DNA of 64,000 nt, from the NCBI GenBank assembly GCA_964187785.1, contig OZ076409.1, positions 51,400,001-51,464,000 on the forward strand. The letters are read 5' to 3'. Below the pieces are notes generated by a model. It worked only from the letters and a program-made list of their open reading frames with translations, ran no database searches and had not been told where the DNA came from. Each line of letters starts with the position of its first letter. The stretch's first letter is position 1. Positions 1 to 48,348 of this stretch are shown here, piece after piece. The position numbers were made by a program, and so were the translations under genes. Source of the DNA: Amphiscolops sp. MND2022 (lineage: Eukaryota).

Positions 1-1488
1 ACGACGATTTCATGCAAGGGCGACCTACTGCCTTAGTCACCTCTGAGTCGCGGGCAAAACTACAGCTGTCCATCATAGAAGACTTCCTACAGACCCAAGG
101 CGACTTCTCGCTGCTGAAGAGTCTGTGGTCGAGAATCAGTGCCCACACCGACTACCAGGCTAACTTGTGCGATTTCGATTGGTCAGAAGAGCGTATTACG
201 GTGGGTTCTTTTCTGTAAGTTGACCAATCGCTTTTGCGTTATCGACCAAGTTACTAAATGTACTTGTCCATTTCAGGCCATCTTCCAACACTTCTTTAAC
301 TGCGCTATGAACCACTTGGCAGAACAGATTACGGCTGAGCAGTGCTTTGCCATAGAGTTCGAGGACAGGGGCCCTAACCGGTACATGACAGCACGATACT
401 GGGAGGGCCAAAATCTTCACCGGGTCCTCATCTGCAGGAGCCAACTACCAGCTACTGACCTGACCGGGGAACTGGGATCATTGTCCCGACTGTTGTCTGT
501 CGTTTCCACCAAGGCTGACATAGTGGCGTGCTCCGGAAGCTCTGTCGATCTTCTTCGCACAATTGATTATTCTCCCCTCTTCTCCCGCGCTGTGCAGAGT
601 TGTTTCCGGTTTGACCAATTGGATCTACCCAAGATGATGCATAAGACCAGTTACAGTGTCTTTGGCCACATAGATTTTTTCTCAGTCCTACGTGGTCTGG
701 TTATCTCTCTTGGTGGAGCGCATTCCGAAGACTGGTACCAACGCAGTCCAGAGCTAGCCCAGGTAAATAACGTTCACCTTCCTAGTGTTGTAATCGTGAT
801 CAATCAGGTGTTAACTGGGGGGGGGGAGGAGCGAATTCCCCTAGTTGTTCGAGTTTAAGTTGTGATTTCCTTCCCAGGCCATATCCAGCTGCAAATTGGA
901 GCTCTCCACTTTACCGACCCTTTGCCAGGAACTGATCGAGGAGTGGAAGCCGATAACAAGCTACTTGACGACGCACGTGCCAAAGCAACAAGGTCAAGGA
1001 GTCCGTACTCGGGTAAGTAACCAGATCCTTACAGCCTTTAAATATATGCTGATTAGGAGTTGCTTGAGGTATATAGAAGGATGAGTCCCCATTTCCGTTC
1101 AGTGTCTATTGTACTAATACAGGGCCTTATTACAGGTGCAAAGTTTTGAGTGGGGGCTAATTTGTGACGAATTTATTCTTGTCAAGCTGGAACTCTTCTG
1201 CCGGATCGTCAGTGACTGTTAGTGTACCTTTATTATCTTTAGACAGGTTTTCTACTCTAAACTGCATCAATTCCTTTCCTTAGATAACACTAGCTTCATT
1301 GTCAACACTCATCATAGACGAGACGCCTCATTCTTCCTCTGTGGGGAGGTTTCCAAATTCGTCTACCAGCTGTGCTTCAGATGTTTCACTAGCGACTCGG
1401 TTCCTTTGCCAAGTGCCTGGTTTCTCCTCCTGGGATTCCAAGTGGGTGACGGAACCCTCATGACTGCTGGAGAATTCCTTGTCCGGCT
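1..1488 (+). repeat. Partial direct duplicate of 4749-6236 (3' part of the antisense zinc-finger gene), open at the window edge
   Basis: Near-identical at offset 4748. Visible differences are IIED vs IIGD and splice donor GTGGGT vs GTAGGT. Identity stops at gtccggct (1488/6236), truncating the last exon. Confidence 0.97.
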
Positions 1489-1521: not shown

Positions 1522-1818
1522 TTATTTTGTGTCTAACTTGGGAGTCACATCTTGCCCCGGCTGCCTGGTGCTTGGTCCTGCGACCATTTCTTCCTCCATA
1601 CTGCTAGTCGTCATGACACGTCCGGCAATTAGAATGGGGCTGGACACTACCTGCTTCTCCACCCTTCTGATCATTTCGTCCGTGTCCGTCGACCAGTCTG
1701 AGTCCAAATCAACTGAGGTTTCCTCATCGCTGCTTATGTAAATGACTGAATCGCCTGATGAGTCTGAGTCCAGTTCAGCCATCTCGAAGAGCTTTCCAGA
1801 TTTTGCGTATTTATCCAT
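1522..1818 (-). CDS. Small acidic protein (~98 aa from MDKYAKS) with SIM-like motif VIYISSDEE; probable accessory ORF of the retroelement
   Basis: ORF track 1522..1866 with first ATG at 1818. D/E/S-rich. TATAAA on the minus strand near 1890. Same strand as gag-pol. Confidence 0.5.
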   Translation of the reverse strand: MDKYAKSGKLFEMAELDSDSSGDSVIYISSDEETSVDLDSDWSTDTDEMIRRVEKQVVSSPILIAGRVMTTSSMEEEMVAGPSTRQPGQDVTPKLDTK

Positions 1819-1879: not shown

Positions 1880-2726
1880 TTGAATGAATTTATAAAACTC
1901 TCCTCAGGCCGACTCGGGCCGTTTTCCCGGGGTTTCGTTTCAGCGGCAAAATCTTTGGTTATTCGGTCTGATCCATCGTAAACTTTCCTGAATGGAGTTT
2001 CTCAGCGGCGGTTCGCCCTTTGAATATCGGAACGCTGCCCCCCGAGCCCACCCTCTCAAGTAGGTAATAAGAGAGGTGTTAAGTTGACAACAACAAATAA
2101 TACCGCTTTCAAGTGGGTAATCAATATCGAGCTTGATAGTAATTAACGGCATGCGTCAGGCGAAGTCTACCAAATGGCATCAGCCAATCAAATTTGAGCT
2201 TCGATAAATTTGAAAAACGAATAATAAAGATGGCGAAAAATAATAATTTGAATAACTAAAATGACGAAAATGATAAATCAAAATAATTTAAAATGGCGGA
2301 AATAGCAATTTGAGTAACTATAATAACGGAAGTCCCAATTAGGATAACAAACGAAATGGAACAAGATGATAAACTGAAATAGGCTAAACGGCCGTAATCG
2401 GCCAATAATTCCATAAGTTGTAAATAATGAAGTAATCTTTGTACATTTCGCTGGCAGACTCCATGTACAGAATAAATATGTAAATAATCCCGTAATATTA
2501 GTCTGGTAATTCCTTCAGCCACGAACTCCAACTTTCTCTCTTTTAATTGTTACATTATTTGATTCACCTACTATTTACTCCTTACTCTTTCCATTATTCT
2601 CCTTTGTCTACGACCCTAGTTTTGCATTTATTGGGCTCACTCGTAATTCCATTGCCAGCATCACCTCCACGCAGGTCCCCGATTTCTTCTTCTTCTTTTG
2701 TCCGAATCCAGCTGTTCAATCCAATC
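1880..2726. promoter_or_regulatory. Putative divergent promoter between the acidic ORF and the antisense gene
   Basis: AT-rich intergenic stretch with GCCAATCA (2183-2190), YY1-like AAGATGGCG (2227-2235) and AAAATGGCGG (2290-2299), and a TATA-like element near 1890. Confidence 0.3.
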
Positions 2727-5700
2727 ATGTCGGACCGACAAGGACTTTCCCCGGAAGAGCAAAGACTTCAGTGCCAAGAGATCGCTAACACAGGTTGGTT
2801 TGAGTAATCATATTTTGAACTAATTAACGTGATCAAGGTTAACTTTGTTCATAAACTGCTTCCTGTTTCCATCAAAAGACACGTGATAACACGTCTATTT
2901 AAAATTTCAAACACTTCCGGAAGATTTCTAAAGCGGTCAAAATGGACTTTTTCCAAGGAAGCACACCGCCAAATTTCATTTCTTTCTGTTTAGTTGGCCA
3001 GAATGAAGATGAGCCACAAACTTCTTCCAACACTGTTCCGGATCTCTCTGTTGCACTAATTCAAGAGGTTAGCCCGCCTTCTAATGCTGATCCAGTTCGG
3101 CCCCCTGTTCCTTCTCCTCCACCTTTTCCGCCACTGGTTCCTACAACTTCCCGGAATCAAACTGGGGAAATGACTCCCCTTTATAGTCCCGACAGTAACA
3201 CAGATGTTACTTCTTATGCCGATGAGATGGTCCAACGGCTAGAGGATGCACATGCTAGGCGCATAGCTGAAGCAGACGTCACGATCGATACAGCTCTCAA
3301 TACGGCCCTCAACTCGCAAGTTCCGGAGAGTAATTTGAATCCCCTCCTCCCAAGGTCAAGTACTCCAACTCTTGATGCTGAAACAGCTGGGCTGTCCGCC
3401 AACCTGTCGCAACTCGAGACTGCTCTTGGCGTTGTCATCGGTACACAGTCTGACTTGCCGATTCTCGTTCCAGTTCCTTTACAAACAGAATTGCGGGAGC
3501 GAAGTGATGGGGATAACGCGTCCTCCACTTGTGACTTTCCTGGGCTGCCCAAAGATAATCCAAAGGTCCACTTCTTGACCGATGACCCTACTGAGAGTGA
3601 GAAGACTGGTGACGACACAAGTCATGTAGAAGAACCAGCCCTCTACAGCTCTGTCCCTTTTGGATCTGAATCCGGAACTGAAGCCGGGGATGAGTCAGGA
3701 CCAGGACATGACACTGTGGGACCTGGTATGCCTTCCAGCTCTCGGGGACCTGATGACCACCTTCCAGAACTAACCGGTCGAAGCCGAGCCATCTTGAAGA
3801 CATACTTTGCTGACACCAAGCCATTTAACCTACCGCTAGGACACCCCACTGTGGCTTTTACTGAGGCCCAGATGTATCATTTGCTACGAGTCCTGAGTGA
3901 TGAAACTCTTCGAATGTCCTACTCTACCATGGAGAAGATGGTCGTCGATGCCGTCAGAGGTAAACCTACTGTTGCACCCTCTAAGACGTCCCACTTCCTC
4001 ATCAGGAACAGAGCACAGACTCCAGGCAGATGGGATCAGAACGACCAGAGCTCTTCAGAAGCTGAGTACGACTCGAGCGCGGACTCCAGGGCCTTAACTC
4101 CTACCAGTGCAGGAGATACAGGAGATTCTTCCTTCGAAGGGGAATCGGACAGTGCCACTGAAATGGCTTTGATTTCAGCTACCTTGGGAGGCGAATCCCA
4201 ACTTGTTCGATCTTCTCAAGAAAAGGACAGATTTGCTGCCACATGTACCACAGGTGGTGATGAGACCACAGGCCCCAGTAGTCAGGAAACTACACTTCTA
4301 GAGCTCCAACAGCAAGCCCGAGGGACAAAGGCGAAAGGTTCTTCTGGGCGCAAACTCTCCACTAAACCAAGAAAACTTGCCAGTCGAGGGGTCCCAATGC
4401 GGGAAGAATTTTTCGCCAAGATCGGGTGGACCCGATCTTTCATCTCTGGACCCGCTGATCCGGTACACAATCCACATATGGTCTGGTGCCATATGTGCAA
4501 AAAGAACTTTTCAATTCGGTCCAAGGGCGCTTTCGAAATTTTACGCCACCATCGTACAGAGAGACACCTGCGACGAGACCAACGTTGGAGGTACGAACAC
4601 CTCAAGAGTGTGGACCCATCCAGTGGGAAGATACGGCATCGGGTCCGAGGTCGGAATGGGAAAGTACTGACCGCAATCGAGCTGGCCAAAGAATTGCCGA
4701 AGTTCATTCACACTGAACTTGTAGACGTAGGAGAGAGATTTCCCTTCTACGACGATTTCATGCAAGGGCGACCTACTGCCTTAGTCACCTCTGAGTCGCG
4801 GGCAAAACTACAGCTGTCCATCATAGGAGACTTCCTACAGACCCAAGGCGACTTCTCGCTGCTGAAGAGTCTGTGGTCGAGAATCAGTGCCCACACCGAC
4901 TACCAGGCTAACTTGTGCGATTTCGATTGGTCAGAAGAGCGTATTACGGTAGGTTCTTTTCTGTAAGTTGACCAATCGCTTTTGCGTTATCGACCAAGTT
5001 ACTAAATGTACTTGTCCATTTCAGGCCATCTTCCAACACTTCTTTAACTGCGCTATGAACCACTTGGCAGAACAGATTACGGCTGAGCAGTGCTTTGCCA
5101 TAGAGTTCGAGGACAGGGGCCCTAACCGGTACATGACAGCACGATACTGGGAGGGCCAAAATCTTCACCGGGTCCTCATCTGCAGGAGCCAACTACCAGC
5201 TACTGACCTGACCGGGGAACTGGGATCATTGTCCCGACTGTTGTCTGTCGTTTCCACCAAGGCTGACATAGTGGCGTGCTCCGGAAGCTCTGTCGATCTT
5301 CTTCGCACAATTGATTATTCTCCCCTCTTCTCCCGCGCTGTGCAGAGTTGTTTCCGGTTTGACCAATTGGATCTACCCAAGATGATGCATAAGACCAGTT
5401 ACAGTGTCTTTGGCCACATAGATTTTTTCTCAGTCCTACGTGGTCTGGTTATCTCTCTTGGTGGAGCGCATTCCGAAGACTGGTACCAACGCAGTCCAGA
5501 GCTAGCCCAGGTAAATAACGTTCACCTTCCTAGTGTTGTAATCGTGATCAATCAGGTGTTAACTGGGGGGGGGGAGGAGCGAATTCCCCTAGTTGTTCGA
5601 GTTTAAGTTGTGATTTCCTTCCCAGGCCATATCCAGCTGCAAATTGGAGCTCTCCACTTTACCGACCCTTTGCCAGGAACTGATCGAGGAGTGGAAGCCG

Positions 5701-7194
5701 ATAACAAGCTACTTGACGACGCACGTGCCAAAGCAACAAGGTCAAGGAGTCCGTACTCGGGTAAGTAACCAGATCCTTACAGCCTTTAAATATATGCTGA
5801 TTAGGAGTTGCTTGAGGTATATAGAAGGATGAGTCCCCATTTCCGTTCAGTGTCTATTGTACTAATACAGGGCCTTATTACAGGTGCAAAGTTTTGAGTG
5901 GGGGCTAATTTGTGACGAATTTATTCTTGTCAAGCTGGAACTCTTCTGCCGGATCGTCAGTGACTGTTAGTGTACCTTTATTATCTTTAGACAGGTTTTC
6001 TACTCTAAACTGCATCAATTCCTTTCCTTAGATAACACTAGCTTCATTGTCAACACTCATCATAGACGAGACGCCTCATTCTTCCTCTGTGGGGAGGTTT
6101 CCAAATTCGTCTACCAGCTGTGCTTCAGATGTTTCACTAGCGACTCGGTTCCTTTGCCAAGTGCCTGGTTTCTCCTCCTGGGATTCCAAGTGGGTGACGG
6201 AACCCTCATGACTGCTGGAGAATTCCTTGTCCGGCTCAATATGACTAACAAGGTTGCCTCTGCTTGCAAGCGAAAAGCCGAAGGGGTCCATTCTGGAAAA
6301 CGGTCGGATCGGGCCCTGGTCCAAAAAACAGCCGAGACCATCAAGACTGAGTTCGTCCAGGATGCCATGGCTTATTTAAAGTACCTAATTAGTGAAGTAC
6401 TGCGACAAGCTGGGCTCAGTTCCAATATCATCAAGGGGCTGGCTGCATTCGACCCTCACATTATGGTCAAACGTCCCACGGAAGTGGCGCTCCGGCATTT
6501 CGACATCCTTTTTAGTACTTTTCAGCGCCGTTCTTGGATCAGTGCCTCAGTCGAAGCAGCTTGCAGGGATCAATATGTTGAACTAATTGACTACCTCCGC
6601 GCTAAGTACTCTGGTGGGCTCGAAGTTACTGAAGAGGCTAAGGACCTCATAGATTTCCTGATGAACCTTGATTTCCTGCAAACACGAGAGCATCTCCTCC
6701 ACTTATTCAAGTTGTGCTGCCTTTGCATCACTACAGTGGGTCCTGAATTTCCAGTTGTAAAGGTGGGCAGAGTTGATACTTCCGGACAACGGGGCCGCTT
6801 CATTGATGTCGTTCTCCCCATCCAGAGCTATTTGATCGGGGTTCCTGGCTCTGTAGCGAGGTGTGCGAGTGAGTCTAACCTCACCAATTTCTCCCTTCTT
6901 TCTGCCTCTTTTGGGTCATCTGCTTTTTCGCCTACTTATGACCCTTGGGAGACGGTTGATGTCTTTGGGCGGACGAAGATATACAAGTCGCTTCTATCCT
7001 CTTATCGTTCTGCAGTCTCAGAGCCTTCAGTTGGGTCCGCTCAAGTGGAAGCCAATGATACGTCATCGGTCCTGGATGATGCGGCATTGAAGGTACCCAG
7101 TAGCAGTAAACGTAAACGGACTGAGAAGAGAGCTGCTCGATCCCGTTCCTCATCCGTCCTCAGCGAGTCTATGTCCAGTTCTTCTAATGTTTAA
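2727..7194 (+). CDS. Six-exon ~1295-aa gene: disordered N-terminus, C2H2/BED-type zinc finger, degenerate hAT-transposase-like body. Exons 2727-2793, 2994-4948, 5025-5510, 5626-5760, 5884-5965, 6032-7194
   Basis: Five GT..AG introns (phases 1,0,0,0,1) join the ORF-track fragments into one stop-free 3888-nt frame. Motifs: WCHMCKKNFSIRSKGAFEILRHHRTERH, FAIEFED..MTARYW, GLAAFDP, LLHLFKLCCL and NLS-like KRKRTEKR. Confidence 0.82.
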
Positions 7195-7424: not shown

Positions 7425-10400
7425 TTAGTATCTGAAGTCTTCTGAGTAGTTCGGATTAGGGTTTGGCCTGAGATTATATTTCCCTCCTCTAGGGCTCAGA
7501 CTTTCATTTCTAGCGTCGTTTTCGGATATTTCGGGCACGATAATATCATCCCCCCTTTTTGGAGAGTTTTGTGCATCGTTTTCGTTCATTGAATTTCTTT
7601 CTGAAAAAGTTTCATCATTTTCCGGTGCATCTGCCGTATTCGGCAAAGAATTTTCTTGGTTTTTCGGGAAAACGGCCGGATTCGGCCAGTCAGATTTGTT
7701 ATTTTCTGTCACTGCAGTAGGTTCTTTTCTTTCAGTGACGTCATCATTTAATCGTTCATCTTGGCTGTGCGACGCACGATCGGTAAGATTTGATTCGTCA
7801 CTCGTGATTACGTAATCCACTTCATTGTCGCTTGCGTGACTTGCGTTCGCTTCTGCCGTACTCGGCTGTTGGTCATTCGTCAAGTTAGTCGGAATAGGCT
7901 CGCTGCCTCGTGTATCTAGCTGTTCGCCAAAGTTTGTTTCCCACGTTATTACATACAAGTCGTCTTGCGGAATTATTATTTCGTCATCCGGCTGTAGACG
8001 CTGTTCTCGGAAATTGTCCTCAAGTGGCTGATTTGGAACAAACTTTTTGAGACGAATTCGATGCAAGATCTGCGTTTTATTTGTATTAAGTCTGCGGACA
8101 ATGTAATTCTCATTAGGTAAGGTTTTCTGGACTATAAATGGTCCAACCCAACGATAATCCCTGAATGGAATTTTTGATCCTTGATGATCCGCTTTCGGCT
8201 GTAATACAAAACAGTAATCGCCCTCTTTGAGTGGGGCGGCTTTTGCTTTTCGGTCGTAATACTCCTTATATTTGATATATGACTGCATGATGTTCTGCTT
8301 TGTTTTGTCAATAAGGAGTTTGGTCCGGTTCTGGATTTCTTCGGCAAATTCAGTAGTCGGATGGATTGGGTCATTTGGATTCATTCCAAGTTTGTGATCC
8401 AATATGTTGTATGGGATTCTCCCATGGAACACTCTTGTGGGTTCGCATCCGATACTGGTATGATAACTAGTGTTATGATTGAGAACTGCTAGAGGCAAAT
8501 ATTTGTGCCATTGTCGGCGATATTCCCCACATGCCATTTTCAGGTTCGTTTTCAATGAGGCATGCGTTCGCTCTAATTTCCCGATAGTTTGCGGGTGTTT
8601 CGTCGTTGCGCATTTTAGGGTAATGCCTAAAATCTGTGTAATTTCCGCAATGATCGTGGAGGTAAAGGCAGTTCCTTTGTCCGTAATGAGCGTCGTCGGT
8701 AGGTAAGAATGTTTGGTCATGATATCAATGATTGCCTTAGCTACATTGATCGCTGATGCGTCCGTGAGAGGATAAGCAAACAAGTATCGAGAGAAGACAT
8801 CAATTGCAGTTAAAACATTTTCGTATCCTCCACTTGGGGGAAGATTCGGCAATAAGTCGATTTGCATGGCGTCTTCGGGTCCAAGGTCCCATTCCGGCAA
8901 GTTAAGTAGTTCAGGCGTGATTGTTGCGTTTGGGACTCGTTTGTCCTTTGCACATTGTTCACACCCTTCTACCCACTTTTTGACATGTTTTGCCATGTTA
9001 GGGTAATAGTACTTTTGTCTGATTTCCTGCAACATTTTTGAAATCCCGGGATGTTTATGCGCTGTCCCATGAAGGGAGTGGAGCACTTCCCGAAGTAGGT
9101 GTTGCGGGAGCAAAATTTGATGGTATTTAACATTCCCCGTTTCATCAAAATATTGCCTTGTCAGGCTTTCGTCCTTGAGTACGATTCGCTCCAAATTATT
9201 TGCATAGTGTCTATATCGAGCATCTTGTTGCAGTATGTTTTCTGAATAATCTTCATGAAGGAGTTTCGCCTTCAATTGTTGTAATACTGTATCTTTGGAT
9301 TGCTCAATGATGATCTGGTTCATTTTCCTCAATCGGACTTGTACATCGGGGTGTTGCTTGACCAGATTTGTTGACAAAGTTTGTATAGTAACGGTGGGCT
9401 CATCAATTGCTGGGTTCTTCCTGATTGCTTCTTTCCTTGCCCAAGCCTGTTCCTCTGTCTCATCGTTGTCATTGGTGTAGAAGATTTGTTCTTCTTGCGA
9501 CACCCCTGCGGATTGGACATTGATTTCAATTGGTAAAGTTTGTACATCCTCACGGATTTTCATGACTAATTTATCCTTCGGGTCTGCCTCCAATCGGGAC
9601 AAATAGTCAGCTGCTGTATTCTGTGCCCCCGGGATGTGTGCTATGACAAAATTGAACTGAATCACATAATCACATGCATTCCACAGGGCTGGGGGTATTA
9701 TTTTCGTTTGGAAAAATCTCGTGACGGCTTTGTTGTCCGTAAGGATGATGACTGGTTTCGGCGCACCCCAGAATATATGTCCGAATTCTTTGAATGCGAA
9801 ATAAATTGCAAGGAATTCTTTTGCATAAATTGACATCTTTATCTGGGCTGGGGTGAAAATTTTTGATCCGTATGCGACTGGTGCATACGATTTCCTGAGT
9901 GACGTGAATTTCTGGTTCGGGTCATCTTCGATTAAGACCGCGTATCCGGCTGCACCAAAACTTGCATCAGTCATTAGTGCTATTTGTTTGTTCGGAATGG
10001 GTTGTTGTAATGCCAAGTCGCAACATTTGTCAAGTGCTTTGTTGATTTCCTCGAATTGTTGGACCAATTCTTTCGATACCAGGACCTTTTCGTCACTCTT
10101 TAGCATCTTGTAGAATGGGGCAAGGCGTTCTGAAAGTCTTGGGACATAATTTCTGTAGTAATTCAAGAATCCCAAGTAGCGCTGCAAAGCCTTTTTCGAC
10201 TTTGGGAACTTGGTCTTTTCCAGAAAGTTTTGCACGTTTTGTTTCTGGGGTTTGACGCCTTGCGGGGTAATAGTCCGTCCGAGAAAATCAATTTCTTTGG
10301 CACCAAAGTGACATTTATGCATTGTCAATTTAAGGCCTGCTTCCTGAATGCATTTGAATGTAGCCCTCAGGTTAGCTATGAGGTGGTCAGCATCATTTGC

Positions 10401-12638
10401 TGCGATGCCTATATCGTCCACGTACTGGGCACACTGATCCGCTCTGATGACTTTGTCCAGGTATTCTCTCATAAAACTCGAGAATGCGGATAGTGACCGG
10501 CTAAGGCCTTGTGCCAGACGTCTGTAGGCGAATGTGCGACTGGCAAAATTGAAAGCCAACATTTCAATTGAACGTTGGTCGGCCATTGGTAGACAATGGT
10601 ATGCCTGCGAACAGTCTTATTTACAGAAGAGTTTTTTGCCTGCCAAGTGTTGGGCAGCATCAACCAAGGTGCTAACTGGGTGATTATTGTTTATATAATC
10701 ATCCGAGATGAGGTTGTTGATTTTTCTCAGGTCAACCAAAAGTCGTAGCTTTCCATTTGGTTTCTTTTGGGCGAATATTGGGCTGGCATACTTGGAGAAC
10801 GGTAAAGTGGTGATGATGCCATATTTGTGTAACATGGCTAATTCAACTAGGATGTCCTCCTTCAAATTGATAGGAGCTGGAAGACTTTGACTATAGGCTG
10901 GGGAATCGTCCTTAGGTGTCAGTTTCACCTTGAAGTCCTCGTTCATGCCTATATCGAATCGGTGTCGTGCAAAGATGTCGTGAAATTCCACTAACAATTC
11001 CTCTATTTTCTCCTTCTCTTCAGGAGTAAGGGTGGAATCTTTCCAGTCAAAGTTTTCTAAGAATTTTGCACGTGATTCTTCGTCTTTTGTGGGGTCAAGA
11101 GTCTCTAGGTCTTGTAAGGCCTGTAATTCTTGAAGGATTCGTTTTTGTATGGGTGTGTGTTCCTCAGGATTTCCAGGGTTTTCTGGAGTTGGGAACCAGT
11201 AATTTTCAGTGTTTTGTGGATTTCTGTTTGTCTTGATCAGGCTACTGACGTAATGGGCTGCTTGTTCTTGGTCGTTTTGCAACAAATGCCAGGTTGATGC
11301 CGGGTCTACCGGTTTGACGTATTTCATTTGCTCTGGCGTCATGACAGAGAAATTGGCAATATGGAGTCCCTTTTTGAGTTTATAGGGGTGGTCTGTGAAA
11401 TTATTCACAGGTATCGATATGTTGCCATCATTCAGAGTGACCAAAGCTGGGCAAAAGGTGATGTCGCCTTCTTCATGTAGAAGGTCGCTCGGTTGTAAAA
11501 TCCCAGTTACAGCGTTTTCAGGATACAGTAGGGAATTGGTCCTGATTAGGACTCTGTCATTCGGCGGAATGGTTATTTCGGTAGGGTTGAGAATTGGTTC
11601 TAGCACGTTTGAGTATTTATGGTCAGCTGTTTTTAGCTGCATTGAAAAGAACGGGAAGTTCAGGATTCCTTGTCTCATGTCCAGAACTGTATGATTTCTC
11701 TGCAGGAACATTAGTCCAATGATCGGTCCTGTTAAATGTTCCATGACTATAAAAATCTCATGAAACTCAATGTCACCAACTTCAAATTTGAGCTCTATGG
11801 TACTCTTAGGAGTTTCCAGTTGCCCATTAGCGACCATTATTTGGAAATTCGGAGGCGGGCCTTCTCGGATAACAGATTGTGGAGATAAAAGTCGGATTTT
11901 CCGGAGGTCCATTTCAGGAATTGCACTGGACAGCGCTCCAGTGTCGATGAGTCCGTCAATGGTCAATTCCCCAAAGTCCATTGGGAAATATAGCATGCGT
12001 TTCTTGCATTTCAAGTTTATGTTGGTTGACAGGGGTATACAGTCTGGTTCACCTTCTCTGGTAATGAGGATGTTTTGGAACTGACTTTCGTCAAGTAGTG
12101 ACTGTGGTATTGTTTCTTCTGGTTTGTCTGAGGTCTCGGTCCCTAAGGGGTTTGGGAACACCGGATGGCTTGTACCATCGTTCATCTGCCATGTTTCAAT
12201 CAATGCTCTGGTTTTCTTGTTGTGGGTGATTGGTGGGTTGTCATGGATTGATCTATTATAGAGTTCGATATCATCGATAACGTATTGGAATTGTAACAAA
12301 TCCTGGTTGTAAAGTTCGGTATCCCAATAGGGATCTCGTCCATAGTCAGGATCGATGTAGGTAGGGTTGTAGTTGTCTATCAAGGGAATGGGCCTGAATC
12401 GGCTATTGAAAGCGGATGTGTAATCAGGGTCCCATACAGGAATTGGTTTTTGGAACAAATGGGTATTATTGTAAGTAATAATGGTAGCTTTTTCCATTTG
12501 TTGCTGCCAGACAACAGAAGGATAGCCCATCAATTGTTGATTGTATTGGTGAAAAATTTGCGTTGGAGGGTCCGATCTGATGTATTGTCGGACAGATATT
12601 AGTTGGTTGTATTGGAGTCGTGGCGAAGTTAGTTTTTT
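7425..12638 (-). pseudogene. pol: Ty3/Gypsy pol (protease, dUTPase-like insert, RT, RNase H, integrase) with one in-frame premature stop at 10617-10619
   Basis: LIDTGA (PR), LRLLVDLRKIN and YVDD (RT), TDAS (RH), H..H..CEQC plus D-D-E and GPF (IN). ORFs 10617..12533 and 7425..10586 share a frame across FCK*DCSQAYH. Domain order PR-RT-RH-IN. Confidence 0.95.
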
Positions 12639-14350
12639 GACTCATCATTGGAAGATGAGGTTTGTGAGTTGGAAGATGTTGATTTGTTTTGTGGTTTCTG
12701 CGCCTTTGGATTGGGTTTACCGTCATTGGCATCATCTGGTCTGGTGCGTTTGGGTTTGAGATGTGCACCAGCTCCTTGCCAACATCTTTCTTCCGGGTGG
12801 TTCTTTTTACCACAAGTGCCACACTCCGGGTACGTCTTTTTCTGAGTCTGTTTGCCTTGTTGGGCATCTTTTTCTTTTTTCTTCTTCAATTTCTCGCAAT
12901 CTTTGACCATGTGGCCCTTTTCTTTGCAATAATTGCACGTTATATCACTCATCGGTACGTTGGAAGGAACAGTTTTTGTCTTGCCAATCGAAGATGTCAT
13001 TGATGCTATGGGCAGGTCGTCAGACTCTTCAAGTGCATTCAGTTCCAGTTCTCGCTCTAGATGAGCGACAATTTCATCGTAAGAGCCATTCTCTAGTCTA
13101 GCCATGTTGACTGATCTTTTGAGCTTTGGTGGCAGTTTTGCATATAGGAGACTGTCAATCATTTTTTGGGCATTGTCTCCGAAGGCTTTTTCTGCTCCTT
13201 GGTTAAGCTCTTCAAGAAAGTCTGGCAATTTGGTCGTGTTAGGGTCAAAGACTAGGCGATGCCATTTGTGTTTTGCCGTTGCCTGAGATTCAGGTTTGAC
13301 GTACTTTCGTCTGAAAATGACAAGTACGTCCTCAAGAGTTTGTCTATTGGCGTTGCTGATGTTTCTGAATGTTTGGAGTGCATTCTTTCGCAGCAAGGAA
13401 TGGAAGTCATTGATTTTCATTTGTTCGGTCATCTCAGGCTGCATCTTGATCATCGTATGGAATAAATCCTCAAACAGCTCGAACTTCTCACTTTTGCCGT
13501 CGAATGTCATTGTGTTGGAGTTGACTGGGCGGATAGTGAGTTGTTGGGCCGTTGGACGGTTCTGCATACTAGTCAAAACATCTGCTAGCCTGTTGATGGG
13601 GTCTTGTTCTGATGCCAGAGCGGGTCGTTCTTGTGCTGGGATCGTCGTGTCGAGCAGCGGAAGGTCATCACAGGATCTGTTGAGATGACTAGTGGATGGC
13701 ATTCGTCCTGTGAGAAACTCAGGAACTTCAATTGGAGATTCGTTTTCTCCTGTCACCATGTCGTAAGCACAAGTATCTGAGGTTGTGAATCCGTCTCTCT
13801 CACGATTACCTAGTGTCTTACTCTTCAAATTGTTTCTAGAGTCTGAATTACGCAGAACTTCAGAATATCCTTCCGGTCTCTCAGACGGAACGTTCCATCT
13901 CTCTCTGGTCATATGTCCGGACTCGGCCATAAGGGCATTTTGAATCTGAGGAAGAACTTGATTACTAATTGCTTCACTTATAGCTCTTTGAATCTGCACA
14001 CTGACGCTGTTCATCATCTCATCCATCTCCCGAGATATACGGGAATTCAACTCACTCGACAATCTGTTGATCTCGGCGTTAGAACTACCTCTAGCTGAGT
14101 TCTGGCCTAGTTCGGCATGTGGACTAGGTCCATCGTTCTCAGAGTTAGATAACCTATTTCCACCCTCATTTCCAAATTCGTCGCTAAACGGACTACCAGG
14201 TCTTCTGGCCTGGTTGCTATTTAGGCTCTCACTTCTTTCATTTCTATTATAATGGTTTCCTCCAAGCATTATGTCTAAATTCTCAATATCTGACAACATT
14301 TCTGCCTCTCTTGATTTTCTCGCTTTCTTTTGTTTCCTTGTGGTAGGCAT
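12629..14350 (-). CDS. gag: Ty3/Gypsy gag, 573 aa
   Basis: Intact ORF upstream of pol. Two CCHC knuckles, CNYCKEKGHMVKDC and CGTCGKKNHPEERC. Capsid-like region from TFDGKSEKFELFEDLF. Confidence 0.93.
   Translation of the reverse strand: MPTTRKQKKARKSREAEMLSDIENLDIMLGGNHYNRNERSESLNSNQARRPGSPFSDEFGNEGGNRLSNSENDGPSPHAELGQNSARGSSNAEINRLSSELNSRISREMDEMMNSVSVQIQRAISEAISNQVLPQIQNALMAESGHMTRERWNVPSERPEGYSEVLRNSDSRNNLKSKTLGNRERDGFTTSDTCAYDMVTGENESPIEVPEFLTGRMPSTSHLNRSCDDLPLLDTTIPAQERPALASEQDPINRLADVLTSMQNRPTAQQLTIRPVNSNTMTFDGKSEKFELFEDLFHTMIKMQPEMTEQMKINDFHSLLRKNALQTFRNISNANRQTLEDVLVIFRRKYVKPESQATAKHKWHRLVFDPNTTKLPDFLEELNQGAEKAFGDNAQKMIDSLLYAKLPPKLKRSVNMARLENGSYDEIVAHLERELELNALEESDDLPIASMTSSIGKTKTVPSNVPMSDITCNYCKEKGHMVKDCEKLKKKKEKDAQQGKQTQKKTYPECGTCGKKNHPEERCWQGAGAHLKPKRTRPDDANDGKPNPKAQKPQNKSTSSNSQTSSSNDESKN
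12632..12638 (-). promoter_or_regulatory. -1 programmed ribosomal frameshift slippery heptamer A AAA AAC
   Basis: Minus strand reads TCA AAA AAC TAA at the gag end. The -1 frame is open from here (KLTSPRLQYNQL...) straight into pol ORF 10617..12533 and is closed by TGA TGA just upstream. Confidence 0.85.
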
Positions 14351-14792
14351 TGAAACTAAACCGGGTTGAACAATTCAATTATTAAAACCGGAAAACTGAC
14401 AAACGTCGTTGTAAAATCAATCTTTATCAAAGCAAGGTTATGAAAAAAGTGTCTCCCTTTGCAGGAAAGTGACTATATATACTCCTGAAAGATGACACTT
14501 GCATTCCACGGATTCTTTGATCAAGATAATATCATGTGGTTATGTCCTCAACAGGTCATGTGACAAATACCATTACTGCATCGGGTATTAATACTTCAAA
14601 GCAACTATTTTAGGGTGATGTCCCGATTGGGAAAATTCCTAACATTTTACAATCACAACTATTCATTCATCAAAGGCGGCGTCAAAATATTTACTAGCGC
14701 ATCAAATGAAATTTCCGTCTATCAAAGGAACTCGTACTCATCATGAATATAAATAACATTGCATACATTCCTTTCTGGCACGTGCCACCACG

Positions 14793-15602
14793 TGATCTAA
14801 ATTAGCTTTGCAGCAGTGTGAAGCACCTCATGTTATTAGGCCCAATACGGCCAATTGACATGTTAATGGTTATATGCGTTGATTAACCGATTAGCCCCAA
14901 ATACATGTACTGCATCACTTTTCAAAGGAACGTAACAATTCCAATGGCCGGGAATAGCCGGCTAATTAATGGGCAAGTACTAATGAAATATGGCCTTAAG
15001 GGCATAGCAAAAGGTTGGGTATTAAAATGAAGCATCAGTTAAGAACAAAGATCCGGCTATTATGAAAACACAAACTCAACAAACATGATTTGTTACATGT
15101 CAAATTATCACCTTATTTCAATCTTGAACTAATGGGACGGAACCGGCCATTTGACCAGTGTACCAAAAGAGAATATTAAAAGCGCGGCAACTGGCCTTAC
15201 TCGGCCATTAATTAAATAGCATCAACAAACGAGATTGCATACTGCGATATGATTGGTTAAGGTAACGTGCTCAAGTGACGCTGCCGGTACATTGCCGTAC
15301 GTCACTTGAACTCGTTTCCTATACTGCCTTACAGTCGCTTGTTTCATTGTATTTTCTATCACTTTAAATTAGCGCCTTACAACTCCATCAACTCGATTGA
15401 AATTTCCAATTGTTAGATTTAACAGACTAATTGTATATAAAATGAGTGTCATCACTGATCATAATGCACAAAATAACAAAATGGCGTGAAAGTTTGATAT
15501 CAATTGTAAGTTCTTAATAAATAGGTAAGGTTCCGGGTACATATTCTTGACCAACTGCCGAAGTAGTTACCGTCGTGCCGTCACAGGCGGCAGCCTGCGA
15601 CA
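14793..15602 (-). repeat. Candidate 5' LTR (TGTCGCA...GATCA) followed by a possible tRNA-Leu-type PBS TGGTGGCA (14783-14790)
   Basis: TG..CA ends with a 2-nt gap to TGGTGGCA. A related terminus, cggcagcttgcgaca, recurs at 15966-15980. No second LTR is available for confirmation. Confidence 0.35.
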
Positions 15603-16372: not shown

Positions 16373-16980
16373 TCATAATGAATTAATTTCAGTGTAACGT
16401 AATAAAGCATGGTAAGGATTATACCCAAAAGCCAAATAGTCAAATCGGTATGCAAAAATGAATGCTAATATTTTCTGTAGATCCAATGTCCTCAATGTTT
16501 TGACGTCATAACTGGACTTGTTCCTCACAAGGCTCTCATTGGTCTTCACATCTTCAACCTTGAATGGAACTTTTTCATGCATGTTTGTTAGATCATTTAT
16601 TATGTAATCCATATCTTGATTCATCGTTTCAGTTCTTCCTAAATAGGAAATGTTGAGAAAGCAAGGATCACAAATTGAAAGCTGTTTTGTAAAATGGACA
16701 TTACGAGTATCTCCTTCAACCAATATGTCGAAATAATGGTTCAGAGTCATGTTTGGGCCTTCTAGCCACCCTTTGCGTAATACTTTGTCGAAGAATCCAG
16801 AGAGGGCTCTGTCAAAGGGATCCCTAGTGAACATATAACTGAACTTTTGTTTATTCTTTTTTCGACCTCCATAAACTCGTGGGTTTGCCTTTGGCACAGC
16901 TTTGTCGAAAACAACGTGAATTTTTTCAACTGGTCCATCGTGAAACAAGTTCCACAGTATTCCTCCTCGGGTGCTCGTTC
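16373..16980 (-). CDS. Terminal exon of a carbohydrate sulfotransferase (Sulfotransfer_2, CHST8-14/HNK-1ST-like), paralogue A
   Basis: FTRDPFDRALSGFFDK (3'-PB motif), HF..Q..CDPC...YLGRTETM..D and YRFDYLAFGY. Acceptor ttttacag at 16981, phase 1. Confidence 0.88.
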
Positions 16981-18708
16981 CTGTAAAAAGTAGTTCGCTT
17001 ATTTTTAAGAAGTGAAAGTAATGAAAAATACCACGAACTTGAAATTAATCAGAAATGTTCATTGAAGGATTTATCTTGATAATTGAAGGTTAAATTAAAT
17101 TGTTAAATTTCGCGATATCAGCAGAAAAAAATAAATCGTTCCAAGCATCGATACACTGGTATCAAAAATTGAAAAAAAAAACTAAAAAGCTAACTTCAAC
17201 TCCGAACTGAAAAGTCCCATGAAATTTCACGAGAATTTTGACCTTTATTATGCAATATTTTGTCAGAGAAAACTGCTAGTGTCAATTGTGTAGCCTTGCC
17301 ATTGCTCTAAAACTTTTATTTAAAAAAATTTTCAAAATGGTTTTCTAGCCGAAAACAATTTAAATTTCGGAGTAAAATTTAGACGTTCGCGTATTTTGCG
17401 GAGTAATTTTGAAGGAGAATGTTTTCAAAAGGAAGGAGTTTCAAAATCGAAATATTAAAAAAGAGTCGAAGCTACAAAATTTGTCGTTACGACAAGTGGT
17501 TTGCGAAATGTTGAATGTCAAACGTCGAGAGATGCCAAAATTACAGAGTATACTACGTGATAGAACTTTACTTCTTCTCCTTTGTTTATTTTCGGCACTT
17601 TTTAGTGAAAGTTGGAAGCCTCTTACAGTGGCAAGTTTTTTTTTCTTCAGTCGCCCAGCAACGTCCTTGTTTGTAAATACTGTAAAGTTCACCAAAAAGC
17701 GCCTGTTGGAAGAAGCGATAGTCTAGTGGTTACAAAGTGTCGGTTTATCGCTTGGAGGCGGCGGGATTGATACAAATTATGAATGTGGGATTTTTGAGCG
17801 ACATTCTCATTTTTACCTAACGAATTTTTTGAGCTGATATGATTAATGTAAGATACGCCCTCCTTTTTTATCGGTGTAAATGTTTTCGGCTTCGAAAAAG
17901 TTTTTTTGCGAGTTCAAGCTCCTTTTTCGGCACAATGTGACTTTTGGAAACAATAAAATGTTTTTCCAAAAAGCTGTTTTTTTAATTTCTCAAAAATATT
18001 TGTTTTTTTTTGCTTCCTGTTGAGCAAAAAGCGGTTTTCGAGTCTTAAGGATATCCCTTCGGGCGTGTTTCGGCACTAAAAGCTGACAAAAAAGTTTCAC
18101 AAAAGTGTCCCTTTGCAATTTTTGCAAACCCTTCCTCTTTTTGAACTTCGGGCGCCGACTTGCGACTTGGGCCGTTCCCAGGACGTTGAAACAAAGACGG
18201 AGAGCATTGATGTGCGACTTTGTTAGTATACTAGCTCAAGAAACTGTTCGGAACATTCGGACACTTTCAAACGTTAATTGTTTAAAAAAGAGAAAGTGTA
18301 CCCTAGTCGAGATTGCTTGAAGTTTTTACATGCTGCATGCAAACATGCAGGCTAATTTTTTATAAAACATGGAAAATTCCGGGACCGTGCATGGAAACAT
18401 TTTGTAGGATTACAATGCAGCCTTCACTATTTGAATTAAAACTGAAAACAATTTTACTTCTTCGCCGCAGCGATCACTTTGTTTTCACGCGTAAGTTTCT
18501 CATGTAAGTACCTTATATAATCACCGTTAGCCAGATAGCACGCTGAATATGACGCTACTTTGAAACTTATAATGTGACTGAAATTTGTTTGCATTGAAAG
18601 CGCGGTAAAACTGATTAAGGTCTCAGCTGCTTTCAGAATTAGAACCGCGTCTTTATGAAACCTGCAAAACGTCGCGGCGCAGAATTGCCGCCAAATTTAG
18701 GATGCAGT

Positions 18709-21700
18709 TGTAACGTCCAGCAAAAGACGTCACAAAAATTCGATGAAATGTGCGATAGCAAAATTTCTAAATCAAGATGGCCGACCTGACAGGTACTTGA
18801 AATTGAAAAGGATGATGGATAATAGTGCAAAGACACCCCCCACCCAGCCCGAGAGAGAACACACCGCCATAGAAGTATCCCCAAATTGCCGTGTTGTGCC
18901 ATCTCCCTCTGAAGACGTCCCAGCTGTCAGCAGAACCCGAAGAATGGCTCAAGAGATGAAGAAACTCAGAAGTTTGCATATTTTGCATGTGCCACCTAGT
19001 AGGTCCAAGACCAAGGCTCGCTGACACTGACGCCTGATGTTTCGTCAGCCTGTTGTACCATATTTGTGATTTTTGTAGATGTTTGGCGATGTTTTACCCC
19101 TTATTTCACCCAGTTTAGACGTTATTCACTAATTAAATGTACTTTGGCTAAACCCCTGTTTTTGACCTCGGAGGTATGTAGGAACACGCAGGAGCATTAA
19201 GAATTGTTTTTACAGGCTTGTGGGACGTGTCCGGACTTTGAGAGCGCCGGCACGTTGCCTCGGAGCTCTAATAGAGGAGACTCCTTAGACAATTGGAAAA
19301 GTCCCTTTTAGGAGACCATTTTGGGATTAAGAACTAATGCCTACGGCTGTAGTAACACAACGGTCTCCTGTCTAAGCACCCTAGGCATTGTCCCACTTCT
19401 ATGATGTACTCTGCTAGGTGGCTGACGCTACATCTAGAATAGTTTTTATGGCGCCCCCTTTTTCCATCTTTTCGTCATAATAGGAGTTTTTCCTGCTTTC
19501 CGGCCCTGTTACGTACGGATCTAGGAAAATTTGTTGGAGAGTCCTAGATTGTTTTTATTGCCTTAGTCAAGCCTGGTAGGTTTTCTACGAACTGAATTCC
19601 TGCGTATCCTGCGTATTTCCGGGGTCTGAGATGAAAAATAACCGTTTAATTACAAAGTACCATTTCGACACCGTTTCTCTGTACCGAGATTAACCATCCG
19701 GCCTAATCGGATTTTGTTTTAAAGGGTTTTGTAGCCTCATTTCAGCTTAGTTGTAATGTACGGGAACTGCAGGGACGTGGTGTGAGCGCCTCCACTAGCT
19801 GTGACGACGGAGCGACGTCCTTCACGTCAACACCCCCTTAACCCCCTGGTGAACAACTGCAAGTCGACTGGGTTACAACCTCCCTCTTTGTTTTTGTGGC
19901 TTTAAAAGCCTATTCCCAGGCGTACCCTTAATAGTAAGAACTGCGAAAAATACCCACTGGGTATTCCGATCGTTTTCTGAAAAAACATAGCGAGTTATCT
20001 GTAACACCTGATATAGCTCGATTCTTGATACAGTTACTTTCAAAAGTCAAAATTTTTCAGAAGAAGGTACGGCCAGTGGGAATACAATAAAAACGTTCTA
20101 TCAGACCTGCCAGGTCAGAAACAGAAAAATTTGCTGGGCTAAATTGCTGAAACGTTGAAAAATTTAGCAATTTTTGTTTAAAATACATCAATTTTTCCTA
20201 AAAGACCAAAATTGGTGAGGGCGAAGCCTTGGGCGTGTGTTCCCAAGCTTTAAGACCGGCCCAAAAACAATGTACCTGAGCTTGGTAGTACAAAACACTA
20301 CTGCCAAGACGTTTTTCATACCCTTCCCCAATATAAATTGATAGTTTAACCCTTGACTTTCTTTTGTTATACATAGACCTGAGTAGAGGACCCCATAGAC
20401 CTGAGAGTTATAACCGTCAAAATTATAAATTGAAACAACCCCAGCCCCCTGAACAAAGTTGTTACACCTTGACATGTCACTGTTAGAATTATCCCGAACA
20501 TCTGGGAACCGAGAAATAAAAAGTTCTTAGGGAAAATACGTGTTTTTCATAATTGTTCCCAGAGCGTAAAAAGTGTAACTTGAAAAATTTTTGAGAGACC
20601 TTATTTGGAACCTGCCAGGTTTTGCTTGCCTATTTTCTGTTAGTATAGAGTATGAAATTGGAAACGCAGAAAACCGCGAGTGATTCCAACCAGTGGTTGC
20701 CGAGAAATAGCCAGAAACGCGCAATTTCAATGACAATATCGGGACATTGGAGTAGTGTTCCTGAGACAGGTCGAAATCTCTCCTGGTAGGAGTAGCCAAA
20801 AACGAATTACACCATCGTGTAGACCGCAAAAAGTTACGTTAGTGGTGTACTTTTCGTAGCGCTACCACTACTAGTGATTGAGAAATCTTAGCCGCAGTTT
20901 TGCTCAAAATTTGTACGAAATTGTCAAAAAAATCAAGTTTTATTTGAGCATATTGCTATACCTTGGATGTACCCCAGCACTAAGATTCTTGCTTTTTTGT
21001 ACGTACGGCACTAGATCCTGACAATTTGTGCATTTTGAGCAGCTTGCTACTGTCCAATTTGGAGAAATTGACAATTTTGTGAATTTTGACCCCAAAAAAT
21101 GACACATAGGGTACGTCATTGTTTTGTCAACTCGGATTGCAGAATATTAACCTGGGCACCCCGCTAATTTGTTTTTCTGTTACATGGGTATAATTCACGC
21201 TCGCATACAAGATTTCAGGTGGCTGGGACGCCTAGAAGGCGAGTTTGACCAACTTTTGTGAATTTCACGACATAGTCAAATTTTCTGTGAACATTGTTAA
21301 ATGACCGTAACACCCACAGAGTCAACTTCTACTCAATCGGCAGTAATGTTCCAACGATTTGGCCACAGCAGTTTACAGTGTTACATTTTCAGGTCGCTAC
21401 TAGCTCTAGAAGTGATTTTCACCTTTCCCAGGCGTGCATATTGGCGAAAAAATTGTCGATTTTGAGAAATTTTGCGAAAAATTGTACAGTTCTTGGAAGT
21501 GTAGTTGTAAGTGAGGGCTCCAACGACCCTAGTCCTACACCAGGCACCTATAACACGTCCTATTAAAGCACTTTGAATAGAGCTAGATCAACCCTAAGAT
21601 CTTGGGTTCGTCGAAAAACTGTCTACGAGACGTAGTAGCGAAAAACACAAAAACCTTGTTTCTCCCTTCAACAGCTATCAAAGTCATTTGAGTGCAATCT

Positions 21701-27700: not shown

Positions 27701-29094
27701 ATTGTTTTTACAGGCTTGTGGGACGTGTCCGGACTTTGAGAGCGCCGGCACGTTGCCTCGGAGCTCTAATAGAGGAGACTCCTTAGACAATTGGAAAAGT
27801 CCTTTTTAGGAGACCATTTTGGGATTAAGAACTAATGCCTACGGCTGTAGTAACACAACGGTCTCCTGTCTAAGCACCCTAGGCATTGTCCCACTTCTAT
27901 GATGTATTCTGCTAGGTGGCTGACGTTACATCTAGAATAGTTTTTATGGCGCCCCTTTTTTCCATCTTTTCGTCATAATAGGAGTTTTTCCTGCTTTCCG
28001 GCCCTGTTACGTACGGATCTAGGAAAAATTGTTGGAGAGTCCTAGTTTGTTTTTATTGCCTTAGTCAAGCCTGGTAGGTTTTTCTACGAACTGAATTCCT
28101 GCGTTTCCTGCGCATTTCCGGGGTCTGAGATGAAAAATAACCGTTTAATTACAAAGTACCGTTTTGACACCGTTTCTTTGTACCGAGATTAACCATCCGG
28201 CCTAACCGGATTTTGTTTTAAAGGGTTTTGTAGCCTCATTTCAGCTTAGTTGTAATGTACGGGAACTGCAGGGACGTGGTGTGAGCGCCTCCACTAGCTG
28301 TGACGACGGAGCGACGTCCTTCACGTCAACACCCCCTTAACCCCCTGGTGAACAACTGCAAGTCGACTGGGTTACAACCTCCCTTTTTGTTTGTGTGGCT
28401 TTAAAAGCCTATTCCCAGGCGTACACTCAATAGTAAGAACTGCGAAAAATACCCACTGGGTTTTCCGATCGTTTTCTGAAAAAAACATAGCGAGTTATCT
28501 ATAACACATGATATAGCTCGATTCTTGATACAGTTACTTTCAAAAGTCAAAATTTTTCAGAAGAGGGTACGGCCAGTGGGAATACGATAAAAACGTCCTA
28601 TCAGACCTGCCAGGTCAGGAACAGAAAAAATTGCTGGGCTAAATTGCTGAAACATTGAGAAATTTAGCGATTTTTGTTTAAAAAACATCAATTTTTCCTA
28701 AAAGACCAAAATTGGTGAGGGCGAAGCCTTGGGCGTGTGTTCCCAAGCTTTTAGACCGGCCCAAAAACGTTGTACCCGAGCTTGGTAGTACAAAACACTA
28801 CTGCCAAGACGTTTTTTATACCCTTCCCCAATATAAATTGATAGTTTAACCCTTGTTTTTCTTTTGTTATACATAGACCTGAGTAGAGGACCCCATAGAC
28901 CTGAGAGTTATAACCATCAAAATTATAAATTGAAACAACCCCAGCCCCCTGAACAAAGTTATTACACCTTGACATGTCACTGTTAGAACTATCCCGAAGA
29001 TCTGGGAACCGAGAAATAAAAAGTTCTTAGGGAAAATACGTGTTTTTCATAATTGTTCCCAGGGTGTAAAAGGTGCTAGGTGGCTGACGTTACA
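18709..29094 (+). mobile_element. Tandem array of a non-coding LTR retroelement (LARD/TRIM-like): LTR-int-LTR-int-LTR-partial int-LTR tip, period ~4249 bp
   Basis: LTRs at 18709-19432, 22959-23681 and 27208-27930 with TGTAACGTC...GACG(C/T)TACA ends. Purine run GAGGAGGA precedes LTR2 and LTR3. TGGCGCCC lies 16 nt after each LTR. AGT is duplicated at the outer flanks. No gag/pol ORF. Confidence 0.85.
22807..22850 (+). repeat. Three ~15-bp tandem repeats (tgggcaatgac) upstream of the PPT; also at ~27055-27100
   Basis: tttttgggcaatgac tttttgggcaatgac attctgggcaacgac. Confidence 0.8.
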
Positions 29095-47879: not shown

Positions 47880-48126
47880 GGTCGTTATCTGAAACATTGT
47901 AGTGATTCCGTGGTCTAATAGGTGATAATGTCGTTTAAAGTAGTTAGTTTTCGATTGGTTTGTAGTTCTGCTGAAGAAATTTGATTTGTTTTATGGTGCC
48001 TTGAAGGCACCATAAAATAAATCAAATTTCTCCAGCAGAACTACAAACCAATCGAAAACTAACTAATTTAAACGACATTATCACTTATTAGACCACGGAA
48101 TCACTACAATGTTTCAGATAACGACC
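47880..48126. repeat. Near-perfect palindrome, 123-bp arms, 1-nt loop at 48003
   Basis: ggtcgttatctgaaac...atggtgcctt G aaggcaccat...gtttcagataacgacc, with a few mismatches. Confidence 0.95.
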
Positions 48127-48136
48127 ATAAAAGAAG

Positions 48137-48243
48137 GTTCTAGAAAAGAATGCGACAGGCCTGTCACAACCGCTGTACGCATTGAGAAAGTTTCTCAATG
48201 CGTACAGCTGTTGTGACAGGCCTGTCGTATTCTTTTCTAGAAC
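48137..48243. repeat. Near-perfect palindrome, 53-bp arms, 1-nt loop at 48190
   Basis: gttctagaaaagaat...cattgagaaa G tttctcaatg...attcttttctagaac. Confidence 0.95.
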
Positions 48244-48348
48244 TTTTTTTACTTACTAGACCCTTAGTCTTTCATTTCTCGTCTTTTTTAATTGCTCGAC
48301 TTTCCCATTACCCATTATAATGGACATTATACAAGTTTTATGAAAAGT

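Follow-up and report, generated by a model that had tools for sequence, protein, structure and literature searches.

Accessory open reading frames (ORFs) antisense to the gag-pol genes have been described in plant Ty3/Gypsy retrotransposons, as Retand (TRP28/PF04195), maize Grande (gene23) and rice RIRE2, and represent the closest precedent for the gene reported here. Like this gene, they are located antisense between pol and the 3' long terminal repeat (LTR) in nearly all copies; according to the available portions of PMC11963269 and PMC7264820, they have their own promoter, are predicted to encode nuclear DNA-binding regulators of unknown function, and are of unknown origin and specific to flowering plants. 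In the available text of PMC7264820, antisense accessory genes of LTR elements in general are of unknown origin and function, and resemble no other transposable element (TE). The gene analyzed here, called the cargo below, resides in a stretch of 64,000 nt of Amphiscolops sp. MND2022 DNA (contig OZ076409.1, positions 51,400,001 to 51,464,000), hereafter the window. All coordinates are window positions; the cargo lies on the + strand, the element carrying it on the - strand. The cargo is made by six exons (2727-7194), encodes ~1,295 aa, and is antisense between the integrase and the 3' LTR. It is a conserved accessory gene of a Gypsy clade and likely a dead derivative of a hAT transposase; that it functions as a nuclear DNA-binding regulator of its own element is the interpretation tentatively preferred here.

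The carrier is a Ty3/Gypsy LTR retrotransposon of ~16 kb. LTRs, gag, the protease (PR), reverse transcriptase (RT), RNase H (RH) and integrase (IN) domains in this order, and a short target site duplication (TSD) are all present, in agreement with a reading of the stretch made from the letters alone (the sequence-only reading), which had placed the gene inside a retrotransposon. The two LTRs measure 1845 bp and differ by one mismatch. Nine other copies, chosen by their cargo, measure 16.0-16.3 kb, and none features the internal tandem duplication of 4,748 bp found in the studied copy. Most relatives have an open pol frame of 1,738 aa, unlike the studied copy. Elements end in TG...CA, and 5-bp TSDs flank 17 of the 18 elements with both ends visible, plus 12 of 13 further elements.

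The cargo gene is a fixed part of this Gypsy clade. A first look at the genome (1.07 Gb) gave 7,517 candidates for exon 6, 6,386 for exon 3 and 13,826 for an integrase stretch, figures which are not copy numbers. The cargo is present at all 30 loci picked by integrase, which are the best 30 of 150 scored integrase matches and thus close relatives only. At these loci the integrases are 99% identical, whereas the cargo is 98-100% identical to the window's copy in 6 and 53-59% identical in 24. Cargo clades are denoted by letters (A, B, C, D/F), the studied copy being of clade A. A convergent integrase adjoins the cargo at 36/37 clade A loci, the remaining one being truncated, in 6/6 clade B elements and at 15/15 other loci. 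Clade B cargos are 21% identical to those of clade A, with the same layout and intron positions, and further clades exist; subfamilies diverge down to ~20% identity yet share introns. Identities of cargo and integrase are concordant at deep splits and discordant at shallow ones, which indicates an old capture followed by reassortment. Antisense orientation, location between pol and the 3' LTR, presence in most copies, and conservation comparable to that of pol are thus all found for the cargo.

The cargo is under strong purifying selection. In 4 of 14 cargo pairs the synonymous divergence (dS) was measurable, and the ratio of nonsynonymous (dN) to synonymous divergence was 0.037-0.056; the remaining 10 pairs are saturated in dS, and their proportion of nonsynonymous differences (pN) is 0.12-0.27. 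Among six close copies, exon 6 has a dN of 0-0.006 versus a dS of 0.017-0.115, and the folded cargo exons are as tightly constrained as pol. An exon 6 profile retrieved 1,078 clusters (50% identity) at E<=0.001, many of them fragments, and 173 at 1e-30; no named protein was present among the family members inspected in two clusters. One family member (P0252) has no match above 29% in this genome, so the family is found in at least one other genome.

The six-exon splicing pattern is predicted from the sequence. Among 40 loci compared, 28 passed a full-match filter, and in all 28 intron 2 has its GT and AG, and intron 3 its GT, at identical places, the intron sequences having diverged. An alignment of 21 clade A and clade C copies shows the exon 1 donor and the intron 1 acceptor to be conserved. 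Naturally intron-less variants confirm three exon junctions: exons 3 and 4 form one frame in clade B, exons 5 and 6 are uninterrupted in loci L222 and L225, and exons 4 and 5 are contiguous in P0002. No fully intronless cargo copy was seen among 150 scored exon 3 matches. Frames of 847 aa were considered as intronless copies and rejected, as the 75-nt intron is merely stop-free and retains GT/AG. Counts out of 49 given below refer to loci in which the five conserved exon blocks are all present. Of these, 46 have an intact finger and, with splice sites kept in 28/28 loci, this argues that the motifs of the cargo are not due to chance. The motifs quoted in the sequence-only reading are all found on the + strand in the order reported, in separate ORFs which correspond to exons (finger at 4487, FAIEFED at 5094, ACSG at 5274, AFDP at 6445, LHLFK at 6697, KRKRTEKR at 7108). 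The spacing in FAIEFED..YMTARYW had been misjudged, the gap being of five residues, not two. The interval assigned to the gene (4470-6760) covers a real gene, but is too short at both sides, leaving out exon 1, the larger part of exon 2 and the last stretch of exon 6; exons 5626-5760 and 5884-5965 lie within it and had gone unmentioned. The ~480 aa of acidic, Pro/Ser-rich disorder correspond to 486 aa starting at Met 2942 (D+E 14%, S 12%, T 10%, P 9.5%).

The core of the cargo is very probably RNase H-like. An AlphaFold2 model of exon 3, derived from 26 cargo sequences, features helices (H) and strands (E) in the order H-E-E-E-H-E-H, as RNase H. The predicted local distance difference test score (pLDDT) averages 57.6, ranging from 63 to 80 over residues 11-90 and falling below 50 over residues 100-148. 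All top classes retrieved with the model by VIA and Foldseek are RNase H-like. In line with the sequence-only reading, the conserved finger and the model together describe a zinc finger followed by a predicted RNase H-like core.

A hAT ancestry of the cargo is likely, short of shown. In Foldseek searches with the exon 3 model, Hermes ranked 1-4, 7 and 9 among 350,542 chains; in VIA it scored a Z of 5.8 (rmsd 4.0) over 113 aligned residues, the longest alignment among the top rows. In the ESM Atlas, exon 6 had 23 of its 30 neighbours within the set carrying PF05699 (47% of members in the best cluster), and clusters of the KIAA0543/GTF2IRD2/ZBED5 type lay near the finger region. The top match of the finger, in a set of 852 ORFs and their reversals, is the finger of a host CGGBP-like hAT (E 0.006). 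At low threshold, hhalign pairs the cargo with host CGGBP-like hATs along a colinear path through finger, strand 1 (host FTINVDE paired with cargo FAIEFED), FDP with FDP, and final helix.

Several results weigh against this ancestry. The best Foldseek E value for Hermes, 0.061, is not significant; VIA Z scores reach at most 6.0, with Hermes tied with integrases and sugar kinases; Atlas scores stay below the marks set by the tool itself (140 shared features, recognition 1985; 0.86). Pfam gave no hAT family for any cargo, whether among ORFs of the window, in 150 relatives or in 14 additional proteins: PF05699 was matched at E<=0.05 by 0/150 relatives, though host hATs match it, and no cargo matched zf-BED. 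PDB sequence profiles A1-A5 gave no match for the cargo. The whole cargo aligned by hhalign to host hATs with a probability of at most 2%, versus 98-100% between hAT groups, and colinearity Z scores in a block-shuffle test did not exceed 3.6, the value reached by the MULE control, versus 14-16 for hAT-hAT comparisons. With cargo hidden Markov models (HMMs) against host hAT ORFs, as with hhalign and the colinearity test, the finger alone scores. The exon 6 model is all-helical and weak (predicted template modelling score 0.42), and matched nothing in PDB, wide VIA or viral libraries. The hAT identity advanced in the sequence-only reading is thus weakly favoured by Foldseek rank, Atlas neighbours and colinear motifs, none passing its own threshold, and opposed by the Pfam, HMM, hhalign and colinearity tests, in which hAT-versus-hAT controls pass easily.

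Less probably, the core would derive from a DDE enzyme of another type (MULE, P, Kolobok, integrase) or from a host protein, the hAT-like motifs having been read in by eye. Such an origin, which is compatible with any of the functions discussed below, agrees with the failure of every sequence-level test for hAT and with the generic RNase H-like folds on top of the VIA matches, Hermes being found at rank 13 in a wide search. Against it, hAT was ranked first independently by three methods (two Atlas regions and Foldseek), and the succession of finger, helical domain, strands, long helical insertion, FDP and final helix is colinear, at low threshold, with that of host CGGBP-like hATs. Moreover, the hAT subgroup suggested by the Atlas is nearly absent from the reference set, which held one Tip-type element. 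As to donors, a DUF4371 search gave no match, Tip-type and Spin-doc-finger searches found hATs but not a close donor, and a search of IMG/VR with a host hAT gave no match. The single match of a finger profile in JGI metagenomes (1 of 168 stretches passing) was discarded as a chance match in a bacterial gene. Many intact-looking hAT transposases of the CGGBP/hAT-19-like, Ac-like and DUF659 types were found at other loci (L163, L188, L190, L191, L193, L255, L265, L270).

Catalytic residues typical of hAT transposases are absent from the cargo. According to the available text of PMC4763223, hAT chemistry requires the Asp-Asp-Glu (DDE) triad and CxxH, and 8-bp TSDs define the family. The DDE register was set by motif alignment rather than by residue-level superposition, a point which weakens the assignment. 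With this register, the 49 loci have E (24), V (9), M (4), I (4), A (4), L (3) and T (1) at the first Asp site and S (24), E (18), T (4), plus Q, H and V at the second; Asp is found at neither site in any locus, and the Gly following the second is invariant. The studied copy has Glu (5109-5111) and Ser, respectively, and the loss of both Asp noted in the sequence-only reading holds. CxxH is lacking, in the same motif-alignment register, in the cargo of every subfamily. The ERxFS motif, also noted as missing, was found as E[RS]x[FW]S in 0/150 relatives versus 29/33 host hAT ORFs. Neither flanking terminal inverted repeats (TIRs) nor an intact DDE triad was found, and TSDs at the element measure 5 bp, not 8 bp. 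Devoid of DDE, CxxH and 8-bp TSDs, the cargo is no working hAT transposase, and looks like a derivative.

Intron 1 is more conserved than the other introns, its identity being 76-80% within clade A (9 loci) and 64-67% between clades A and C (3 loci), versus 21-61%. A consensus fold suggested a riboswitch-like or otherwise structured intron; this was rejected because, for the majority of 21 rows, single-sequence z scores are close to 0 whichever strand is folded. Rfam gave no match for intron 1, and RNA structure does not explain its conservation. The intron hosts the 10-bp palindrome CTTCCGGAAG, invariant in 21/21 aligned rows, which had been collected by this very motif. In independent counts, CTTCCGGAAG was found in 13/13 full-length clade A elements (once per unit), 5/6 clade C loci and 0/6 clade B elements; a different palindrome, TGACGCGTC, was found at 7/7 D/F loci and in 3/6 clade B elements. 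The type of palindrome thus tracks the deep cargo split, CTTCCGGAAG in A/C and TGACGCGTC in D/F and B. Among 14 ends read, identical cargo was joined to one LTR type in 7 and to another in 7, a pattern more consistent with a site that moves along with the gene than with an LTR-specific site. The palindrome is a candidate operator, and could equally be a site for a host factor. Three observations count against the operator: the clade pattern is confounded with element phylogeny, both palindromes resemble ETS- and CRE-type host sites, and the two LTR types disagree with a strict LTR-specific operator. CGG/CGC is often preferred by hAT-derived fingers, as stated in the available part of PMC8097297.

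Finger, basic tail and the acidic disordered arm together suggest a nuclear DNA-binding regulator. The explanation preferred, with some reserve, is that the cargo regulates, in whichever direction, transcription or chromatin of its own element. A hAT-like gene would have landed antisense in the interval between pol and the 3' LTR of the ancestor of the clade, and its introns would have persisted since they lie on the strand opposite to that of the genomic RNA. The cargo would have its promoter in common with a second accessory ORF, and its product may bind short sites of the element through the finger and the transposase scaffold, the palindrome in intron 1 being the first candidate. Through its acidic arm the protein may recruit host factors of transcription or chromatin, and in this way maintain expression of the element or set its timing. 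Gene and site may pass on as one cassette, which would account for a cargo swapped between backbones yet not lost. The boldest version is more doubtful: a hAT enzyme would have become an activator or anti-silencing factor of the clade itself, sequence-specific and carried with its operator as a swappable specificity cassette, and this cassette would underlie the spread of the clade to thousands of copies within an animal-type genome.

A role as chromatin or integration cofactor, binding cDNA ends or host chromatin and either aiding nuclear import or steering the integrase to regions rather than sequences, appears unlikely. It would fit the transposase scaffold, the tail resembling a nuclear localization signal (NLS), the selection on the cargo, matching that on pol in strength, and the nuclear-import and accessory roles proposed for plant antisense ORFs (PMC7264820, available text). 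However, 29 insertion sites (15 from one cargo subfamily and 14 others) share no target motif, and feature a weak symmetric C/G preference at TSD ends alone; a common motif hinted by two sites vanished at 29. This argues against sequence-specific targeting, one of the functions listed in the sequence-only reading, and free swapping of the cargo among 99% identical integrases speaks against tight co-evolution with a partner. Slightly less probable still is a negative regulator, acting as copy-number or exclusion factor (self-repressor, or competitor for binding by the host or by rival elements), or a role in RNA export, packaging or intron 1 splicing. The candidate site within its own 5' region, the diversified, swappable alleles on one backbone and the alternative start inside intron 1 are in line with this reading; a pure repressor, however, is harder to keep in every copy, and the z scores of intron 1 do not support a conserved RNA structure. 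Very improbable is an active nuclease or transposase with a non-standard acidic triad, or a plain nested DNA transposon: an acidic residue follows the first Asp site at 43/49 loci, and Glu occupies the first site in clade A and the second in clade B, but no position is acidic across clades (clade C has A/T and A/N at strand 1), TIRs and 8-bp TSDs are lacking where 5-bp TSDs prevail, and no complete locus sampled carries the cargo outside the element.

The cargo shares its upstream region with the second accessory ORF (Table 1), and we infer that this region serves as promoter. Motifs similar to AAAATGGCG occur there in 2-5 copies at 22/22 clade A loci, the repeats being clade-typical. The second ORF is a 321-aa frame in L061 (L061:3502-4467, - strand) and is present also in clade B. 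It is acidic, has a CxxC near its end, is head to head with the cargo in every clade examined, and follows the LTR type, not the cargo; no Pfam family was found above cut-off.

Table 1. Coordinates of the cargo gene, of its carrier and of associated features in the window
Feature	Position	Strand	Remarks
Tail of the duplicated 4,748-bp unit	1-1488	+	Second, incomplete cargo copy; duplicates 4749-6236
Second accessory ORF	1522-1818	-	Head to head with cargo, on gag-pol strand; ends early in studied copy
Region between cargo and second accessory ORF	2160-2400		CCAAT box; repeated AAAATGGCG-like motifs
Cargo exon 1	2727-2793	+	Predicted; ATG, phase-1 donor, frame continues into exon 2
Intron 1/5' control region	2794-2993	+	Unusually conserved; in-frame alternative ATG at 2942
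Palindrome CTTCCGGAAG (10 bp)	2914-2923		Within intron 1; candidate operator or host-factor site
Cargo exon 2	2994-4948	+	Acidic Ser/Thr/Pro-rich region (~470 aa), C2H2/BED-like finger, conserved ~120-aa domain
C2H2/BED-like finger	4487-4565	+	In exon 2; C-x2-C-x16-H-x5-H
Cargo exon 3	5025-5510	+	Predicted RNase H-like core
Cargo exon 4	5626-5760	+	45 aa; helical insertion-like region begins; splice sites conserved
Cargo exon 5	5884-5965	+	27 aa; splice sites conserved
Cargo exon 6	6032-7194	+	Helical; FDP and L..LFKL.CL motifs; basic NLS-like tail at 7108
pol	7425-12641	-	PR, RT, RH, IN (Pfam); stop at 10617-10619 in this copy
gag	12629-14350	-	Start codon within LTR
5' LTR	13759-15602	-	TG...CA; 5-bp TSD; partner LTR 3.6-5.5 kb upstream of window

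The carrier shows additional peculiarities. The gag start and ~200 codons reside inside the LTR (window 13759-14350) in all 19 elements checked; consequently, the gag frame runs through the primer-binding site, and the 3' LTR repeats the gag start. No polypurine tract adjoins the 3' LTR of the 19 elements, the longest purine run within 60 nt measuring 4-11 nt. The flank preceding the 3' LTR is pyrimidine-rich, and in clade A its end resembles a splice acceptor. Young copies (13 clade A elements) differ in their combinations of LTR, gag, RT, IN, cargo and second ORF, which behave as reassorting modules. One clade B element has a clade A element nested in its cargo gene (L061:1640 and L062:7900).

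Other features of the window are a sulfotransferase (PF03567) exon at 16373-17044 (- strand), 0.8 kb from the LTR, with a related stretch at 61736-61842; tandem units of ~4,249 bp (three) and ~2,660 bp (two), at 18700-28800 and 34296-38900; and two near-perfect hairpins at 47880-48250, with arms of 123 nt and 60 nt and 1-nt loops. Elsewhere in the genome (L249-L253; G000:C6, C7, C13), a multi-copy frame of >1,000 aa is SET-like at its N-terminus and helical in its C-terminal part, contains repeats and several zinc fingers, and possibly represents another mobile element.

The cargo makes origin and function of an antisense accessory gene directly testable, since a candidate origin can be traced, a DNA-binding module is recognizable, a candidate site is at hand and natural variants number in the hundreds. 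If hAT-derived, it shows one transposon class domesticated by another (class II by class I); should this origin prove wrong, the cargo still represents a protein family under strong selection that lacks annotation. The literature gave no description of such a domestication, nor of any LTR clade in which a hAT-derived gene is fixed, subscription papers and repeat databases being outside the scope of the search. Bdelloid LTR elements capture other ORFs, the available text of PMC5408684 not containing the term 'transposase', and that of PMC6451197 gives repeat content only.

Compared to plant antisense ORFs, the cargo differs in being multi-exon, in its length, and in having a finger, a predicted RNase H-like core and a head-to-head partner ORF; PF04195, the Retand TRP28 domain, was matched neither by ORFs of the window nor by the 150 relatives and the 14 additional proteins. 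With hAT transposases (Hermes, host CGGBP/hAT-19-like, KIAA0543/GTF2IRD2-like) the cargo shares finger and xDP and, as predicted, helical domain, RNase H-like strands and long helical region, in a folded part of similar length. Unlike them, it has no DDE, CxxH, ERxFS, TIRs or 8-bp TSD, its sequence similarity is below detection, and it moves solely as retroelement cargo. CGGBP1, the ZBED family and DAYSLEEPER are hAT-derived host DNA-binding proteins, often encoded by genes with introns (PMC8097297, available text); the cargo, unlike these, would have been taken up by a mobile element and would keep the whole scaffold, and it is found in thousands of copies and many diverged subfamilies. VANC proteins of VANDAL elements, which are plant MULE DNA transposons, are element-encoded accessory proteins recognizing short motifs in non-coding parts of cognate elements, and are not reported as transposase-derived in the available text of PMC13317346; their likeness to the cargo is a functional analogy.

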